Sequence record: PZ386951.1
DNA from: a phage
Length of the DNA stretch: 64,000 nucleotides
Strand: one strand, 5' to 3'
The notes below the pieces were generated by a model, which saw only the letters and a program-made list of their open reading frames with translations, ran no database searches and had not been told where the DNA came from. This document shows positions 2,828 through 63,098 of this stretch, piece after piece. The translations under genes and the position numbers were made by a program. Every line of letters begins with the position of its first letter. Position 1 is the first letter of the stretch.

Positions 2828-3136
2828 TTATTTACCAATAAATTGAAGCAAATGCTCAACTTTCATACCATTAACAGAAATCAATTTGTCAATAGAAAAA
2901 CCTCGCCAAGCGCCAAGTTCAACATCAAATACTGGAATCATATCCGTAGATTCTTTCCGAGTAGATTCAGTCAATTTACCGGTTTGCATGGTTGGCATAA
3001 AGTCTGCATCACGAGTACCTTTCATAGTACGAATAGTACCATCAGACTTTTCAAAAACTACGTTTGAAATACCCATGGACAATTTAGTTTTCAAAATTTC
3101 ACGAATTGCTACTTTCTGTTCAGTTGTCAGTTTCAT
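2828..3136 (-). CDS. hypothetical protein (102 aa)
   Basis: ORF between cd and 31 (T4 31.1/31.2 region). Confidence 0.5.
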   Translation of the reverse strand: MKLTTEQKVAIREILKTKLSMGISNVVFEKSDGTIRTMKGTRDADFMPTMQTGKLTESTRKESTDMIPVFDVELGAWRGFSIDKLISVNGMKVEHLLQFIGK

Positions 3137-3373
3137 TTATTTACCTATTACAGTTTTATGATAAATTGTTCCACGTTCTTTAAGAGTGGAAAGTAATTTT
3201 TGATATTTTTCTAAATCAGATTTCCAACTATGCGGTCTATCAATACAAACCCAGTTTGATTTATAATACTGTTTCCACCTAGAGAAAAAATATTTCTTAT
3301 ACTCTACAGCAAATGAAATGTTCTCGGTAGAATAAGAACTAATTGCTGTGAGCTGTACCAAACGAAATTTCAT
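3137..3373 (-). CDS. hypothetical protein (78 aa)
   Basis: ORF, stop/start overlap with cd. Confidence 0.45.
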   Translation of the reverse strand: MKFRLVQLTAISSYSTENISFAVEYKKYFFSRWKQYYKSNWVCIDRPHSWKSDLEKYQKLLSTLKERGTIYHKTVIGK

Positions 3374-3954
3374 TATTCACCACAGAATTCGTTGATATTT
3401 TCCCAGTTTAACTTATTCAAGTTTTTCTTAGGAACATTAAACACTTCAATACCTGCATTTCGCAGAATATCATCCCAGCCAGGTTTATTTTTATCGTATG
3501 TTTCGCAATAAACCAGCTTTTTAATTCCAGATTGAGCTATTGCTTTTGCACAATCTGGGCAAGGAGAAAGTGTTACATACATAGTAGCACCTTCAATAGA
3601 AGAACCATTTCGTGCAGCAAACAAAATTGCATTTAGCTCAGCATGAATTTCATTTTTAGACGACCATTCAGAGTGAGCGCTACGGTGTTCTTTCGCCAAG
3701 ACAAAGCGATCAGTTGAACCAAATGATACGCATTCAGGCTTATGGCCTTGAATGATAGTGTGTTTAGGCTTATTCAACAACCATCCTTGCTCAGCAGCAT
3801 AATCACAACAGTTCACACCCCCTGCGGGTGAACCATTATACCCAGTAGAAATAATACGTCCATTCTTTTCAATTACTGCTCCTACCTTCCAGGAGCAACA
3901 TTTTGATTCCTGCGATACTAAATATGCAATTTGAAGTACTGTACTCGCTTTCAT
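3373..3954 (-). CDS. cd: dCMP deaminase (193 aa)
   Basis: 193 aa; zinc-binding deaminase motifs HAELNAI and PCPDCAKA. Confidence 0.9.
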   Translation of the reverse strand: MKASTVLQIAYLVSQESKCCSWKVGAVIEKNGRIISTGYNGSPAGGVNCCDYAAEQGWLLNKPKHTIIQGHKPECVSFGSTDRFVLAKEHRSAHSEWSSKNEIHAELNAILFAARNGSSIEGATMYVTLSPCPDCAKAIAQSGIKKLVYCETYDKNKPGWDDILRNAGIEVFNVPKKNLNKLNWENINEFCGE

Positions 3955-7562: not shown

Positions 7563-9150
<1,588 letters not shown>

Positions 9151-16725: not shown

Positions 16726-17634
16726 TTAAAGGTCATTCAAAAGGTCATCCAGGTCCGTGTCATCAGCACTAGATGAACTGCCAGAGCTTGAGCTCATAAA
16801 ATCATCTTCAGTTTTTGTTTTGAAGTCATCAACATTGAATGCATCCAAATCATCAGCAACTTTATCAGCTTTCTTAGCGGCAGTTGCTGCGGCACCACCC
16901 ATAGCAGCAGTTCCCATAACTTGACTGAACTTAGTGCTCAGTTCTTCAAACGATTTGAATTTATCTTTAGAAGTCATTTCAGAAAGGTCAACCATTTGTT
17001 CGAACAGTTCTTTCTGGAAAGATTCATCGTCAATGTTTGGAATCGCAGATTGATTCAGGAATTTAGATTCGTCGTAGTTACTAAAACCAGAAACTTGTTT
17101 AACTTTCAGTACAAAGTTAGCACCTTCCCACGGACAAGTTACATCAACTGGAGTTTCACCCATTTCAACATCAACTGCAATCATTGCATTGATTTTATCC
17201 CAGATTTTCTTACCGAAACGGTATTTAAATACTTTGCCTTCATTTTCTGGAGCAGCTGGGTCTTTTACTACAAGAATGTTAGCCCAGTAAGAAGTTTTAC
17301 GTTTAACAAGACCGTACTCTTTATTGTCAGTGTTGTACAAATCATTTTTACTGATGTACTGACATACTGGGCAAGAATCGTAATCACCGTGGGTAGATGA
17401 ACAGTTTTCAATATACCATTTACCATTTTTCTTGAAACCGTGATTTACAAGAATTGCAAATGGTGCTTGTTCATCATTTTTAGACGGAAGAAAACGAATT
17501 ACTGCTTGACCGTTACCCGCATTGTCGAGTTTCAGTTTCCACTCGCCTTTGTCTTCAGAAGAAAAACCACCTTTATTTCCAGCCAGTTTAGCCATTTGCG
17601 CAGCGAGTTCAGCAGTAGATTTACGTTTAAACAT
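16726..17634 (-). CDS. 32: single-stranded DNA-binding protein gp32 (302 aa)
   Basis: N-terminus [17 protein letters not shown]; zinc-binding H/C cluster; acidic Ser/Asp-rich C-terminus. Confidence 0.95.
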
Positions 17635-17725
17635 TTTTATTTCCTTTTTAATTTAATTAACAGTTGGTGCTATGACGATGTATGACCTCATAGCTGGTCA
17701 GTGAGATAATTATAATCTATTTATA
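17635..17725 (-). promoter_or_regulatory. gene 32 leader: A/U-rich translational operator region plus late promoter
   Basis: leader UUAAAUUAAAAAGGAAAUAAAAAUG; TATAAATA on minus strand at 17718-17725. Confidence 0.45.
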
Positions 17726-17733
17726 ATAAGCAA

Positions 17734-18387
17734 TTAATACTTGCAAGATTTCACAGTTTCAATAAAAACTTTTTTAGCTTCCTGTGAATCGATATTTAAA
17801 ATTTTTCTATAAGCCTTTAACTTTATAGAATAATTATTCCAGACTAAATTATCAGTCTGTTCATCATGTTTATCAATTATATTTAAAAACGAATCAAGCA
17901 AGATAAACGTCTCAAACGAAATTATATTCGATTGAAGTAGTTTAAAAATATAACTTGATTGAACTTTTGGATTATACTCAAAGATTTCTTTAAAAGCAGA
18001 AACTTCAACTTTTTTACTAAAATAATAAATGTTGCGAATATCTTCTTCAAACTTAAATTTAATTTGCTTTAAGCGTCCGATATATTCACGATAAAACACA
18101 AGTGCATCAGCGTCAGAGATGTCACCAATCCAAGCATCTTGGTTAGCAACCAAATTGCTTATAAAGATTAAAGCAAGTTCCTTTAATTTATATTTTTCTG
18201 ATAACTTCTGGAAAAAATACTTATCCCTTCGCTTTTGATAAGCGGCATCAGACACCCGCATGCACCAATTATACTTAATAACATCATACTTTCCATTCAT
18301 ATGTTGTTTTATCATTAAGTATAATTTATAAACTGATTTACCATCAATGTATCTTTCACCACCAGCAGGCATGCGGAGTTTAATCAT
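17734..18387 (-). CDS. 59: helicase loader gp59 (217 aa)
   Basis: 217 aa and position between 32 and 33 as in T4. Confidence 0.8.
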   Translation of the reverse strand: MIKLRMPAGGERYIDGKSVYKLYLMIKQHMNGKYDVIKYNWCMRVSDAAYQKRRDKYFFQKLSEKYKLKELALIFISNLVANQDAWIGDISDADALVFYREYIGRLKQIKFKFEEDIRNIYYFSKKVEVSAFKEIFEYNPKVQSSYIFKLLQSNIISFETFILLDSFLNIIDKHDEQTDNLVWNNYSIKLKAYRKILNIDSQEAKKVFIETVKSCKY

Positions 18388-29366: not shown

Positions 29367-30023
29367 ATGGCAGCACCTAGAATATCATTTTCGCCCTCTG
29401 ATATTCTGTTTGGTGTTCTAGATCGCTTGTTCAAAGATAACGCTACCGGGAAAGTTCTTGCTTCCCGGGTAGCTGTCGTAATTCTTTTGTTTATAATGGC
29501 GATTGTTTGGTATAGGGGAGATAGTTTCTTTGAGTACTACAAGCAATCAAAGTATGAAACATACAGTGAAATTATTGAAAAGGAAAGAAACGCACGCTTT
29601 GAATCTGTCGCCCTGGAACAACTCCAGATAGTTCATATATCATCTGAGGCAGACTTTAGTGCGGTGTATTCTTTCCGCCCTAAAAACTTAAACTATTTTG
29701 TTGATATTATAGCATACGAAGGAAGATTACCTTCAACAATAACCGAAAAATCACTTGGAGGATATCCTGTTGATAAAACTATGGATGAATATGCAGTTCA
29801 TTTAAATGGACGTCATTATTATTCCAGCTCAAAATTCGCTTTTTTGCCAACTAAAAAGCCTACTCCCGAAATAAACTACATGTACAGTTGTCCATATTTT
29901 AATTTGGATAATATCTATGCTGGAACGATAACCATGTACTGGTATAGAAATGATCATATAAGTAATGACCGCCTTGAATCAATATGTGCTCAGGCGGCCA
30001 GAATATTAGGAAGGGCTAAATAA
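29367..30023 (+). CDS. t: holin T (218 aa)
   Basis: 218 aa; single N-terminal TMD then large C-terminal domain; late promoter TATAAATA at 29341-29348. Confidence 0.9.
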   Translation: MAAPRISFSPSDILFGVLDRLFKDNATGKVLASRVAVVILLFIMAIVWYRGDSFFEYYKQSKYETYSEIIEKERNARFESVALEQLQIVHISSEADFSAVYSFRPKNLNYFVDIIAYEGRLPSTITEKSLGGYPVDKTMDEYAVHLNGRHYYSSSKFAFLPTKKPTPEINYMYSCPYFNLDNIYAGTITMYWYRNDHISNDRLESICAQAARILGRAK

Positions 30024-32751: not shown

Positions 32752-32789
32752 TTTCTAATCTCCGTAATTCTGTATCAGTAGTTGATAGT

Positions 32790-32823
32790 TGTATAGTACC
32801 ACAGTATGCTTTGGTTGTAAACC
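32790..32823 (-). promoter_or_regulatory. early promoter upstream of motA
   Basis: GTTTACA -35, TGG-TACTATAC -10. Confidence 0.6.
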
Positions 32824-32844
32824 GTTTTGTGAAAAAATTTTTGA

Positions 32845-40751: not shown

Positions 40752-42570
40752 ACTGGCTCATCCATTCTTTACGAAGGTCAGCATTATCTCCCATGAGCAT
40801 TTCAAAAAGCTCTTTCCAGTTCTCAGGAAGTTTAACAACATCATATACTGGATTTTGAATCATTTCACGATATTCAGATTTTTCCAAAGAGCCAAGTCCT
40901 TTAATATAACGGATGCTATGTTTAGGTAGAGCATCTTTGGCACTCTCATATTCAGCGACTGTATAAAACCATTCTTGTTTTTTACCGACCTGAGCGATGA
41001 TTACAGGAGTTTTGACAAAGCGAATTCGTCCTTGCTCAAACAATTCTGGCCAATTACTAAAAAATCCGAGCAGAGAAGGATAAATGCTTCCTAGACCATC
41101 ATAGTCAGCATCAGTCATAATAGCAATATTGCGATAATTCAAGTTTTCAGCTTTTTCACCAAGAACTAGACCAGTGATTGCGCAAATATCAAACAGTTCT
41201 TTGTTTTTAAGCATATCAGCATATGACATACCCCAGCTATTAAGAACTTTACCGCGTAATGGATAACCACCATGAAGTTCTTTATCGCGAACATCAATAA
41301 GATATCCGATAGCAGAATCACCCTCAGTCAAGAAAAGAGTAGTATCAGCATCTTTACCACAAAGATTCGCTTTAATATGTTTATGAACCTTAGCTTTAGA
41401 AGCCTTTTTAGCTGCTTTAGTTTCTGCCGCTTTTTCTGCCGCCAATTTACGAGCTAGTGCAGCTTCAATAATCGGCATCAAAATCGCTTCATTATTCAAA
41501 ATAGCACGTGAAATCTTTTTAGCATCAAGTTGAATATGACTACGGATTTCACCAAATGGAGAAGTCAAACGCTCTTTAGTTTGAGAATCAAATCGCATGT
41601 TTTTCATATCACGAACAAACATAACGATAGTCAAACATTCTTTAACGCGTGCTTTAGTTACATCAATTTTGAACTTACGTTTGATTTGTGGAATAAGGTC
41701 TTCACAAATATCATCCATAACACAATCAATGTGATGGCCACCATTCTTAGTATGAATGTTATTCACATAAGTTAATTGACGAAAACCATCCGGTGAACGA
41801 CCAACCGCAATAGAACAATTTTCTTGCTCTTGAACAATAGCATGTTCATCATACTGTCGTGCATATTTCTTAAAATTGCCCTGAACCTTTTTACCATTAA
41901 AGGTAAATTGAATATCAGGATAAACAACAGCAAGTGTCTGGAGACGATCTAATGTAATGTCAAGATAAACTTGGGACAGCTCATTAGTTTCAAATGTCAT
42001 AAAATCAGGAATGAAAGTAACACGGGTTCCTTTCCATTTTCCAGGAATATCTTCCCATGATTTATTTTCCATGCCATTTGAACAACGAACTACAATATTA
42101 TTTTGACCGTCGCCAGTTTCACCAACAAACATCACAGAAAAAATATTTGTCAAACTAGAACCAACACCATTCATACCGCCAGTGACGCGTTCTTTATCAT
42201 CACCAAAGTTACCACCTGCTTTTGGAATAGTCCATGCAGCAACAGGACCAGGAATTTCTTCACCGGTAGGTGTTTTAACCATCGCCTGTGGAATACCGCG
42301 ACCGTTATCTTCAACTGTTACTTGATTGTTTTTAATAGTAACATTAATTTTATTTGCGAATTTAAACTTAGTACGAATACCTTCATCGACTGAGTTATCG
42401 ATAATTTCATCAATAAGCTTAACAAGACCAGGTACATACTGAACACTTTCCCATTTACCAAACAGAAAGCGCTCATGCATTTCATTAGCTGAAGAGCCAA
42501 TGTACATGCCGCTACGCTTTTTGATATGTTCAATATCGCTCAGAATTTTAATTTCATTCTTAATCATCAC
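40750..42570 (-). CDS. 39: DNA topoisomerase II large subunit gp39 (GyrB-like ATPase + Toprim, contiguous 606 aa)
   Basis: GHKL ATPase motifs (GGMNGVGSS) and Toprim (LTEGDSA) in one ORF. Confidence 0.9.
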   Translation of the reverse strand: MMIKNEIKILSDIEHIKKRSGMYIGSSANEMHERFLFGKWESVQYVPGLVKLIDEIIDNSVDEGIRTKFKFANKINVTIKNNQVTVEDNGRGIPQAMVKTPTGEEIPGPVAAWTIPKAGGNFGDDKERVTGGMNGVGSSLTNIFSVMFVGETGDGQNNIVVRCSNGMENKSWEDIPGKWKGTRVTFIPDFMTFETNELSQVYLDITLDRLQTLAVVYPDIQFTFNGKKVQGNFKKYARQYDEHAIVQEQENCSIAVGRSPDGFRQLTYVNNIHTKNGGHHIDCVMDDICEDLIPQIKRKFKIDVTKARVKECLTIVMFVRDMKNMRFDSQTKERLTSPFGEIRSHIQLDAKKISRAILNNEAILMPIIEAALARKLAAEKAAETKAAKKASKAKVHKHIKANLCGKDADTTLFLTEGDSAIGYLIDVRDKELHGGYPLRGKVLNSWGMSYADMLKNKELFDICAITGLVLGEKAENLNYRNIAIMTDADYDGLGSIYPSLLGFFSNWPELFEQGRIRFVKTPVIIAQVGKKQEWFYTVAEYESAKDALPKHSIRYIKGLGSLEKSEYREMIQNPVYDVVKLPENWKELFEMLMGDNADLRKEWMSQ

Positions 42571-42620
42571 TTATCCTCGTTTGGTTTCGGGAATATTATA
42601 CTCCAATAATCATAAAGCTA

Positions 42621-42636
42621 AAGGCCCGAAGGCCTT
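42621..42636 (-). promoter_or_regulatory. intercistronic UUCG hairpin upstream of gene 39
   Basis: AAGGCC-UUCG-GGCCUU. Confidence 0.5.
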
Positions 42637-42906
42637 TTATTTAAAACGAATAGTCGAATCCTTGAAGAATAGTCCAGAACATACTGTTCCTTCTACTTTC
42701 TGCCCAGTAGGTCCAATAGCACGAAATCCAGTATGCTGGAAATCATTTTCAGAGCAACCGAACCAATTATATCCAGTGATTTCAATATTAGTAAAACCAC
42801 TTGAAGACAAAACTTTGGTTGCATTATCAGCATCAGTACATCCTATTAAAGACACTGCTAATACTAATGCTGCAATAGAACGATTAATATATTTCATAAT
42901 TTTCAC
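42637..42906 (-). CDS. putative lipoprotein (89 aa)
   Basis: signal peptide with lipobox LIGC. Confidence 0.5.
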   Translation of the reverse strand: MKIMKYINRSIAALVLAVSLIGCTDADNATKVLSSSGFTNIEITGYNWFGCSENDFQHTGFRAIGPTGQKVEGTVCSGLFFKDSTIRFK

Positions 42907-43280
42907 TTAAATTTAATGGCTTGAAGAAGACTAATAACTCTCAAGCGGCTTCTTTCATCTTTAACTGTAAAGGAAAGAGGGTCACCAGATTTCATAGTGA
43001 TAGTGCATTCAAAATCAAAATCTTCAGGAACTTCTTCGAAGAAGTCAAATTCTTCATCATAAATTAGAACATTACTTTGAAAACTGTGAAGAATTTTTCC
43101 ATCATTTCCAGATGCTGTACTAATCATTGTAACATTATGGCCTTTCATATCTTCAACGATAAATTCGCTTGTAGATATTACAGCATTAATAGAACCATTC
43201 CTATAAATAGCAGACATTAGATATTTCTTTTCTTCACCTTCGCGAATACGGTATTTCTTACCAATTTTAAACATAATCAC
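42903..43280 (-). CDS. hypothetical protein (125 aa; track start is GTG, probable ATG start at 43274)
   Basis: ORF upstream of gene 39. Confidence 0.5.
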   Translation of the reverse strand: MIMFKIGKKYRIREGEEKKYLMSAIYRNGSINAVISTSEFIVEDMKGHNVTMISTASGNDGKILHSFQSNVLIYDEEFDFFEEVPEDFDFECTITMKSGDPLSFTVKDERSRLRVISLLQAIKFK

Positions 43281-53276: not shown

Positions 53277-53795
53277 TTAATAACCTCGGTCTTGACGTGC
53301 GAAATTTTCAGCATTTTTCAGATAATAAAGTTTAAAGATTTCTTCTGCTGTAAGACCAAGACCCTGGAACATATTCAGAACGAAATGAAGAATATCAATC
53401 ATTTCAAACTTAATTTCCAGTTGGTCTTGTGGAGACAAATCAGTAATCAGAGTTTCACGACGTTCACCATGCTGCGACTTCCAAGGTTTCCATACAGCAG
53501 ATGCGTCTTTTTCACCATTACTCATACCACCAAGAGAAGTCAGAAGTTCACGGAATTCATCATCAATATAATCTTTCTGATTACGCAGCCAATCAACAAC
53601 TTCACCTGCAGTAGCCAAATCATCAGGATGACGGTTATATTCAGGTTTATCTTTAGCTAAACGAATCTGCAGAGATTTCTGCATGTCAAGCATTACCTGC
53701 AGCGGGTCTTTTTCATCACCGAGAATATCCCAATATTCATTTTGAGCTTTATCAGCGCCTTCAATCAGTTGTGAACATTCGTTAAAGTAAGCCAT
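53277..53795 (-). CDS. 56: dCTPase/dCDPase gp56 (MazG-like, 171 aa from MAYF)
   Basis: size, position next to dam/soc. Confidence 0.8.
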   Translation of the reverse strand: MAYFNECSQLIEGADKAQNEYWDILGDEKDPLQVMLDMQKSLQIRLAKDKPEYNRHPDDLATAGEVVDWLRNQKDYIDDEFRELLTSLGGMSNGEKDASAVWKPWKSQHGERRETLITDLSPQDQLEIKFEMIDILHFVLNMFQGLGLTAEEIFKLYYLKNAENFARQDRGY

Positions 53796-53855
53796 TATTT
53801 TTCCTTTCAATTCATCAATAAGTTAAATAATTATATCATTTGAGTATGTAAGCAA

Positions 53856-55195
<1,340 letters not shown>

Positions 55196-55217
55196 TATAT
55201 CATCCTCAGCAATTTAT

Positions 55218-55251
55218 TTTATAATACCATAACAAGCTGAGAAAGTAAACA
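55218..55251 (-). promoter_or_regulatory. early promoter upstream of the PD-(D/E)XK-like ORF/dam
   Basis: GTTTAC -35, TGG-TATTATAA -10. Confidence 0.55.
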
Positions 55252-55285
55252 AATTTATGATAAATATTAATTTAAAGGAGGACAT

Positions 55286-55486
55286 ATGGTACAAAAATTA
55301 ATGGCACTTGTTAATGCCATAAAAGGTAATAAGAAACGTATAGCTTTTACTATTTCTGCTATGATAGGAATTTTACTTTGGAATTTTGTTTTATCGCCAG
55401 TTGCTATTGCTCATGGCGTTAGTATTCCAGTAGTTACTCTTGATACATTCGTAGATTTAGCATTTGCTTTAGTTGGGTTAATTTAA
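55286..55486 (+). CDS. small two-helix membrane protein (66 aa), opposite strand to surrounding genes
   Basis: AAGGAGG SD 4 nt before ATG; two hydrophobic segments; stop overlaps gene 61 stop. Confidence 0.5.
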   Translation: MVQKLMALVNAIKGNKKRIAFTISAMIGILLWNFVLSPVAIAHGVSIPVVTLDTFVDLAFALVGLI

Positions 55487-56511
55487 ATCTTAGCATATTT
55501 AGATAGCCGCATTTTAGCCATTAACCCCTGGGCAATATTATTTTTCATATATTCCATAATTTGTTCAGGGGTTGCACCTTCCTTTCTAATCATATCATTA
55601 ACATCTTTTGATTTCCAGGGAGATTTATCCCAAAACATAACCCTTTCTCCTGCATCAACTAATTTAGTCATTCGCTTAATAGTGTCAGGATGACGAGGTT
55701 CATTATCTAAAACCCACACACGTCTATCTTTAAATGGAACAACTTCTAGGTCTAATTGACCACCCGTAATAGCTATACCATTTTCAATAAAAAGTGAATC
55801 TATAGGTCCTTCTAGAACATATACATCACCATCTTTAACTCGTTCGACTCCATAGATTTTTGTTGCCTCAGGATAAGCTTTGATGGTGATATATTTTTGA
55901 GGAGCATCTTTCTTTAATGCACGCCCTTGAAAAGACTCAGCTTTTCCATTAGCATTATAAATTGGAATAACAAGACGAGGCTCAGAAATTTCCATTTTAT
56001 ATGTTCCCGGTGCTATGCTATTAACCAATTTAGGCCATTCGGTTGTAAACCAAAGATATTTCCATTTATCCTTTGGAATACAACGAGCTTTTACATATTT
56101 TATAATTGGATGGTCTTCCGCCAGTTTATCTAATCTAACACATGACGGAAGAGATTTAATTATTTTCTTCTCAAGTTGTTTAGGAAGTTCTTTAGGTTTT
56201 TCTACTGGACGACTTTTACCTTTTTCTTTTCTTATTTCAAAGATATACTCACGATATAAATCAGGTTCAAACTCCTTTAAATATATTCCGATTGGTGCAT
56301 GATAGTTACAGTTATAACAATGAATATTTCCTTCATTATTATCACCATAATACCATCCACGGGCTTTATTTTGGTCGGTTTTTGAATCTCCACACACTGG
56401 GCATCTAAACCGTAATTTAAAAGTTGAACTATTATTTACTTGTGTGAATTTAGGTAAATGAGCTAATGCACGGTATGCAAACTCATTATCAATCCAAGGT
56501 ATTGATGACAT
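55483..56511 (-). CDS. 61: DNA primase gp61 (342 aa)
   Basis: N-terminal zinc finger CPVCGDS...CYNC; 342 aa. Confidence 0.9.
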   Translation of the reverse strand: MSSIPWIDNEFAYRALAHLPKFTQVNNSSTFKLRFRCPVCGDSKTDQNKARGWYYGDNNEGNIHCYNCNYHAPIGIYLKEFEPDLYREYIFEIRKEKGKSRPVEKPKELPKQLEKKIIKSLPSCVRLDKLAEDHPIIKYVKARCIPKDKWKYLWFTTEWPKLVNSIAPGTYKMEISEPRLVIPIYNANGKAESFQGRALKKDAPQKYITIKAYPEATKIYGVERVKDGDVYVLEGPIDSLFIENGIAITGGQLDLEVVPFKDRRVWVLDNEPRHPDTIKRMTKLVDAGERVMFWDKSPWKSKDVNDMIRKEGATPEQIMEYMKNNIAQGLMAKMRLSKYAKI

Positions 56512-56690: not shown

Positions 56691-56984
56691 TTATTCACCT
56701 ACCACTTCAGCGATGATATTTTTATTATTGAAGTTTTTATCACAATACAGAACGTAATTATACTGCATTACACCACCAGACTTAAGCTGTTTTTGTACTT
56801 CAGCTTTCATTTCAGGGCGATCACGCTCAACGATATTCATAATATCTGCTTCAATCTGAGTTTCAACCTCAGTCTGATCTGCAGTCATAGACCATTCGCA
56901 CAAATCTTTATCATAACCTGCCATAGCAGGCTGAGCAGCACAAGAAGCTAAAGCAAAAATTGCAGCAAAAACAAATTTTTTCAT
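56691..56984 (-). CDS. sp: periplasmic Spackle protein (97 aa)
   Basis: signal peptide; 97 aa; position between 61 and 41. Confidence 0.75.
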   Translation of the reverse strand: MKKFVFAAIFALASCAAQPAMAGYDKDLCEWSMTADQTEVETQIEADIMNIVERDRPEMKAEVQKQLKSGGVMQYNYVLYCDKNFNNKNIIAEVVGE

Positions 56985-62962: not shown

Positions 62963-62983
62963 ATCTGTATCAGTAGTTGATAG

Positions 62984-63018
62984 TTGTATAATACCACAGA
63001 GGAACAGTCTTGTAAACA
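62984..63018 (-). promoter_or_regulatory. early promoter
   Basis: GTTTACA -35, TGG-TATTATAC -10. Confidence 0.6.
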
Positions 63019-63098
63019 GTTTTGTGAAAATTTTTTAGGGAATTCTAAAGGTCCAGAATCATCTGTTTTTCATAAGTATAGATTTATATTACTTGTAT

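Follow-up and report, generated by a model that had tools for sequence, protein, structure and literature searches.

The plus-strand open reading frame (ORF) at positions 55286–55486 of a 64,000-nucleotide (nt) stretch of DNA from a T4-like phage (Tequatrovirus; sequence record PZ386951.1), the whole of which is hereafter called the window, lies convergent with gene 61, which encodes the DNA primase. Considering its match to phrog_2024, its synteny, the openness of its frame +1 and the ratio of nonsynonymous to synonymous differences (pN/pS), we conclude with high confidence that this 66-codon ORF is a genuine gene for a small membrane protein. Overall, the best explanation, in which we place moderate confidence, is that the ORF is an accessory gene of T-even phages encoding an inner-membrane protein of 63–74 amino acids (aa), 66 aa in the window. 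The sequence feature is not new: hundreds of T-even genomes have members of the family annotated as hypothetical proteins.

The initial annotation described a 66-aa ORF preceded by the Shine–Dalgarno (SD) sequence AAGGAGG with a 4-nt spacer and ending in a TAA that overlaps the stop of gene 61, and this description matches the sequence and the ORF list exactly. The ATG start lies at 55286–55288 and the TAA stop at 55484–55486, and the spacer ACAT separates the ATG from the SD sequence (55275–55281, plus strand), the GGAG(G) core of which is kept in all genera. The overlap with gene 61 (55483–56511, minus strand), read directly, is the 4-nt TTAA, in which the two stop codons share 2 nt. Chance could yield an ORF of 66 codons in DNA of 35% GC, and the ORF was thus judged real because it is conserved, not because of its length. 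In frame +1, pN/pS was 0.16 within Tequatrovirus (n = 9) and 0.45 across genera, the lowest values in a six-frame control; the other five frames gave 0.24–1.98 and all contained stops, frame +1 alone being stop-free. Pairwise dN/dS ranged from 0.13 to 0.32 with third-position changes predominating, and the window and RB69 copies differed at 31, 12 and 44 first, second and third codon positions, respectively. Whether the ORF is conserved as coding among relatives, the point on which the initial annotation could have failed, was thus answered in favour of coding.

A different reading of the same interval is that it is conserved as RNA or DNA signals, namely the 3′ untranslated region or terminator of gene 61, minus-strand promoters or an antisense RNA, with the ORF being incidental. 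A terminator-like hairpin followed by a T-run indeed lies on the minus strand at 55291–55320, inside codons 2–12 of the ORF; it is also annotated in the fPS-65 record and is the probable 3′ end of gene 61 transcripts. Furthermore, minus-strand promoters abut the 5′ side of the ORF, and a late transcript of the ORF would run antisense to gene 61. However, the hairpin is kept in Tequatrovirus only and is absent from RB69 and VR7, in which the ORF is nevertheless open at 48–54% aa identity, so that the hairpin was ruled out as the cause of the conservation of the N-terminal protein sequence. The substitutions are codon-periodic and specific to frame +1, tandem paralogues retain the protein motif, and an Rfam scan of 55150–55600 returned no relevant family, making a non-protein explanation very improbable.

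The protein belongs to a family that is conserved in position as well as in sequence. It matched phrog_2024 with an E-value of 8.1e-31, residues 2–66 of the ORF aligning with positions 1–65 of the 65-position profile, and the copies of KP1079, CGG4-1 and UPEC01b matched the same profile at 1e-24 to 1e-28. A tblastn search found the ORF in 693 phage records, in every one of them beside the primase gene, and 686 of these keep it at ≥80% coverage; 504 phage records match a 1.2-kb query spanning the ORF at ≥90% identity. The aa identity to the window copy was at least 86% in Tequatrovirus, approximately 54% in Mosigvirus (RB69ORF029w) and approximately 48% in Gaprivervirus (VR7ORF033w). The copies of Klebsiella (Jiaodavirus) and Salmonella (Gelderlandvirus) phages were weakly similar, at approximately 32% identity, but are syntenic and matched phrog_2024 at 1e-24 to 1e-25. 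The ORF thus occupies the same position in five Tevenvirinae genera, with 30–55% identity between genera, and in the syntenic loci it is flanked by gene 56/dam and gene 61, all of which lie on the other strand. This coding conservation and fixed position agree with the earlier description of a convergent membrane-protein gene beside gene 61. The orthologues RB69ORF029w, VR7ORF033w, RB32 ORF030w and bas37_0144 are hypothetical proteins of T-even phages, and proteins 100% identical to the window copy have already been deposited (ECML-123-2 and vB_EcoM_G8); the window ORF shares the full length, position and orientation beside gene 61 of this phrog_2024/RB69ORF029w family, with no substantive difference. 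A profile hidden Markov model (HMM) search of 1.84 billion representative proteins yielded six matches, all from the family itself, and a word-indexed search returned T-even relatives only. The family is very narrow and limited to T-even phages (Tevenvirinae). In Gaprivervirus, two tandem paralogues, type A and type B, are present (UPEC01, positions 1495–1692 and 1701–1901 of the extracted locus). Type B resembles the single copy of the Salmonella Gelderlandvirus, and the second copy of VR7 (extracted-locus positions 1584–1970) is frameshifted near its C-terminus and unannotated.

The annotation of the family is uneven. In the reference T4 records (NC_000866.4 and AF158101.6), the 309 bp that separate dam from gene 61 are left without annotation, and they hold an intact copy of the ORF at NC_000866 17738–17938, with four aa differences from the window copy. 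In one T4 clone and in hundreds of relatives, automated annotation names it a "hypothetical protein". A few homologue records instead carry "putative membrane protein", "holin" or "head morphogenesis protein"; all three names are automatic transfers and putative only. In the T6 RefSeq record (NC_054907), ATT stands in place of the ATG start of relatives (extracted-locus positions 1501–1503), and the record annotates a shorter coding sequence (CDS) from Met6 under the name "putative head morphogenesis protein"; the ATG is retained in three metagenomic contigs of the same T6-like context. The CGG4-1 RefSeq record calls its 74-aa phrog_2024 protein (extracted-locus positions 1771–1995) a "dCTP pyrophosphatase", a name carried over by mistake from gene 56 next to it. 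In the literature on T4 ribosome profiling (Ribo-seq), small proteins, transcription start sites, antisense transcription, CRISPRi-ART and T-even accessory-gene screens, we found no characterisation of the ORF; the HIDEN-SEQ data alone proved informative.

All members of the family share a basic N-terminal helix, a hydrophobic helix ending in an invariant W-N-[FYL]-x3-P-[LI]-A, a loop of the form (H/Q/K)-G-x-x-[LIV]-P-x-[VM] and a C-terminal helix. In the window copy, all five Lys and Arg residues fall within the first 18 residues, and the AlphaFold2 (AF2) model (pLDDT 77) places helices at residues 2–14, 16–42 and 52–65. The initial annotation had predicted two transmembrane (TM) helices, of which the first is robust and the second is doubtful. 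The first (approximately residues 19–42) has a Kyte–Doolittle value of approximately 2.0 and a Hessa ΔG of −1.5 to +2.9 kcal/mol. The second segment (residues 47–66) reaches a similar Kyte–Doolittle value of approximately 2.0 in T4-type copies, but its Hessa ΔG is +4.4 to +9.9 kcal/mol because of the conserved acidic residues D53 and D57; furthermore, it forms a helix of only 14 residues in the AF2 model, it is hydrophilic in the type-B paralogues, and a single TM segment, at residues 21–41, was predicted for RB69ORF029w (Nolan et al., 2006; PMC1524935). With one TM helix, the positive-inside rule suggests an orientation with the N-terminus inside and the C-terminus outside (N-in/C-out), which would place an acidic amphipathic tail of approximately 25 residues at the periplasmic face. 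The window protein ends in ...AFALVGLI and thus has no charged tail. The protein had no matches in Pfam, NCBIfam or PADLOC, and when its AF2 model was compared with BFVD in Foldseek, the matches were limited to the family itself and to small helical proteins without significance.

The gene is dispensable under laboratory conditions, because the Bas37 orthologue tolerates insertions and damaged natural copies occur. Orthology of bas37_0144 (GenBank MZ501089, 91945..92145, plus strand), which likewise overlaps the primase gene by 4 nt, was confirmed by translation. In HIDEN-SEQ, 20 of the 24 TA sites of bas37_0144 were hit and the gene is classed as "Non-essential" (bioRxiv 10.1101/2025.11.20.689424). 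The damaged copies include the ATT start of the T6 RefSeq record, frameshifted C-termini and a 3-aa deletion in the TM segment. Conservation since an ancestor shared by at least five genera makes a real but conditional membrane role likely.

The region upstream of the ORF suggests late expression. A putative gp55-type late promoter core, GATAAATA, lies on the plus strand at 55259–55266, 19 nt upstream of the ATG, and matches the T4 late core TATAAATA at 7/8 positions by virtue of the heptamer ATAAATA at 55260–55266. The upstream layout, GATAAATA-ttaattt-AAAGGAGG-acat-ATG, nearly mirrors that of the holin gene t (29367–30023), the distance from core to ATG being 18 nt in gene t and 19 nt in the small ORF. 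On both strands of the window, ATAAATA occurs 14 times against 36.7 expected, and 100 of 100 shuffles contained at least 14 copies; such a depletion would be expected if spurious late promoters are selected against. Four of the 14 copies lie 18–34 nt before the ATG of the late genes g34, g36, t and soc. Among 19 loci from four genera, N-ATAAATA lies 12–33 nt before the start in 18, and its flanks have diverged. The junction of a deletion in T4 stops exactly at GATAAATA. No convincing conserved sigma-70-type plus-strand promoter was found upstream of the ORF, and no plus-strand terminator was detected within 2 kb downstream of it. A substitution of GATAAATA to GATCAATA in the promoter core would fall upstream of the ORF. 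Elsewhere in the window, copies of TATAAATA at 8100 (plus), 43203 (plus), 17724 (minus) and 2434 (minus) have no ORF start close downstream; these four copies might drive antisense or long-leader late transcripts.

Considering these signals, we propose the following scenario, in which the ORF is a late gene whose product has N-in/C-out topology, a reading that we regard as somewhat better than even. The gene would be transcribed late from its own gp55-type promoter (N-ATAAATA), with a leader of approximately 13 nt carrying the SD sequence, as in holin gene t, and the transcript would continue antisense into gene 61, because no plus-strand terminator was detected. The helix rich in Lys and Arg at the N-terminus would remain cytoplasmic, one TM helix bearing the invariant W-N-[FYL]-x3-P motif would cross the inner membrane, and the short H/Q-G-x-x-[LIV]-P loop with the acidic amphipathic C-terminal helix would lie on the periplasmic side or at the membrane interface there; in T4-type copies, this last helix may re-enter the bilayer. 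As to its role, we tentatively suggest, as a possibility well short of even, a non-essential protein that modulates what happens at the envelope late in infection, for example the timing or inhibition of lysis or the integrity of the envelope; it would act through the short periplasmic segment and would not be a stand-alone holin. A more specific version, which is more doubtful still, is an inner-membrane factor, expressed late, that has a part in the control of envelope events as infection ends, for example via T or RI, together with possible antisense silencing of gene 61. Such a factor might add to the machinery that times or inhibits lysis, acting on the holin T or the antiholin RI via its short acidic periplasmic helix, and the late transcript may also silence the primase gene by antisense pairing.

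The comparison with T and RI has two sides. T4 holin T and antiholin RI are late, N-in bitopic membrane proteins that set the time of lysis. The combination of late promoter, short leader and strong SD sequence at the small ORF is almost identical to that of gene t, and the small protein likewise has a basic cytoplasmic N-terminus, one TM helix and a C-terminus predicted to lie outside. In contrast, T and RI have whole periplasmic domains, whereas the small protein has approximately 25 predicted periplasmic residues; no similarity of sequence or fold was detected, and the small protein is non-essential.

Several points weigh against the proposed late membrane gene and its envelope role. We know of no rapid-lysis mutant that maps to the interval and of no genetic link of the small protein to lysis. 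Transcription and translation of the ORF are read from sequence signals only, and its product has no similarity to characterised proteins in Pfam, NCBIfam, PADLOC, BFVD or PDB. HIDEN-SEQ gives log2 fold changes for bas37_0144 of +0.33, +0.20 and −0.28 in three host comparisons, with an adjusted p of 1 in each (bioRxiv 10.1101/2025.11.20.689424). Regarding the promoter, Gelderlandvirus CGG4-1, the sole exception among the 19 loci, carries only ATTAAATA, and the core reaches 7/8, every genus having G, A or C in place of T at −13, although T4-like phages conserve the −13 T poorly (Nolan et al., 2006). The HMM-based list of RB69 late promoters in the same study has no entry at the small ORF, and the motif abuts the RB69 minus-strand middle promoter Pm:16038 (Nolan et al., 2006), so that minus-strand promoters could account for part of the AT-rich conservation.

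The resemblance to gene t also bears on whether the small protein is itself a pore former of the holin or pinholin type. With 63–74 aa and two hydrophobic stretches, it is similar to class II holins such as the pinholin S68 of phage 21 (approximately 65–70 aa), late expression, putative for the small ORF, would be a further likeness, and homologues have been named "Holin" (OE5505) and "putative holin" (KP1079). These names are automatic, however, and the second stretch is neither TM-competent by its ΔG nor conserved as hydrophobic. The charge of the small protein sits at the N-terminus and not in a C-terminal tail, no endolysin or spanin gene is adjacent, the flanks being dam/56 and the primase gene, the phages already carry holin T, and the Bas37 orthologue is non-essential. 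None of the features of class II holins that could be checked here, namely two TM helices, a charged C-terminal tail and a lysis cassette or a requirement for the gene, was found, and a holin function is thus quite improbable.

Superinfection exclusion, counter-defence and toxin roles are possible for the small protein but purely hypothetical. Exclusion factors such as T4 Imm and Sp are made early. A factor of superinfection exclusion or immunity that blocks DNA entry of secondary phages, like Imm and Sp, would fit a small, non-essential envelope protein encoded approximately 1.2 kb from sp (56691–56984), in a region rich in accessory genes that include dmd and 61.4. The small protein, however, resembles neither Imm nor Sp and matches no PADLOC or Pfam model, and its gene lies on the strand opposite to the early array, with a late-type signal as its sole conserved promoter signal. 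Classical superinfection exclusion is therefore mildly disfavoured, because the promoter appears late and not early, and we rate it as unlikely. We judge equally unlikely that the protein counteracts a membrane-associated host immunity or abortive-infection system and is needed on particular hosts only. That reading would account for a gene that is conserved although it can be spared on K-12, that lies among many anti-defence genes, dmd included, and that has been duplicated in tandem and has diverged in Gaprivervirus; against it stand an atypical late timing, the lack of supporting homology and the finding of no depletion on three clinical or other hosts in HIDEN-SEQ.

The initial annotation had also suggested that the ORF and the neighbouring PD-(D/E)XK-like ORF form a small accessory module. 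The neighbour itself, a 186-aa ORF resembling type II restriction enzymes (54635–55195, minus strand), was borne out as a PD-(D/E)XK-like nuclease by its catalytic residues, AF2 model, Foldseek and PADLOC. Its residues D72, E85 and K87 are invariant, its AF2 model (pLDDT 79) matched PD-(D/E)XK nucleases exclusively in Foldseek, and PADLOC REase_II matched it at an E-value of 9e-5; the Pfam DpnII model PF04556 scored 16.8 bits, below its cutoff of 23 (E-value 0.0045, profile positions 152–235 of 278). A two-gene module, for example of a toxin and a nuclease, would agree with the adjacency of the two genes in the window and in approximately 155 other Tequatrovirus genomes. However, the nuclease is present in 164 phage records, T2 included, against 693 for the small ORF, so that approximately 77% of the genomes with the ORF lack the nuclease. 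T4, T6, RB69, VR7, KP1079 and CGG4-1 have the ORF without the nuclease, the last five having no nuclease gene whatsoever. In T4 (17626–17934; extracted-locus positions 3127–3435), a deletion of approximately 536 bp (window positions 54723–55258) flanked by TGAT/CGAT microhomology has left a remnant of the 20 C-terminal nuclease codons. In Bas37 (extracted-locus positions 869–1054), a different deletion of approximately 356 bp (approximately 54834–55189) has left a 61-aa remnant annotated as bas37_0143. Some relatives share the T4-type junction. The comparison of these junctions indicates that the nuclease gene decayed independently in the T4 and Bas37 lineages, and both deletions took the nuclease and spared the small ORF. 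Furthermore, the two genes lie on opposite strands with different promoter types, and the stop of the nuclease gene overlaps the start of dam (ATGA), implying translational coupling, so that the functional partner of the nuclease is dam and not the small ORF. The distribution effectively refutes the module, the least probable of the alternatives weighed here.

The genes around the small ORF are those of a long minus-strand array, with gene 56 (53277–53810) and dam (53856–54635) on one side and, beyond gene 61, 61.1, sp, 61.4, dmd and gene 41 in this order on the other. Between 30024 and 64000, minus-strand ORFs of at least 60 aa cover 89% of the bases, and wherever a plus-strand ORF reaches 75 aa, it is the shadow of a larger minus-strand ORF. 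Among the plus-strand ORFs of at least 35 aa in the same region that lie mostly in gaps, the small ORF is the sole one with both an ATG and an SD sequence. The inspection of gap ORFs and the check for shadow ORFs thus agree with its earlier description as the sole plus-strand candidate within the array, and it is the only credible plus-strand gene in a minus-strand region of approximately 34 kb. A 136-aa plus-strand ORF at 42500–42910 was considered as a second gene and rejected as a shadow, because it has no PHROG match and the overlapping minus-strand ORFs have matches. Near-identical intergenic repeats of approximately 70 nt occur at 32770–32840 and 62965–63035, reading GTTTACA...TGGTAnTAT on the minus strand. 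The 20-mer repeated upstream of plus-strand pseudo-ORFs (32789 and 62984) is the consensus of strong T4 minus-strand early promoters and is ordinary.

The omission of the ORF from the T4 reference is the practical point of the present study, and the T4 annotation should carry it. The guide design of CRISPRi-ART covered annotated CDSs only, and the T4 annotation of HIDEN-SEQ is without the ORF (bioRxiv 10.1101/2025.11.20.689424); annotation-driven studies of T4 thus never probed the ORF, because the reference T4 records omit it. If the ORF does encode a factor that controls envelope events at the end of infection, a late membrane factor of T4 would have gone unnoticed owing to its absence from the reference annotation. 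The ORF is one of very few plus-strand genes in the early region and is probably late.
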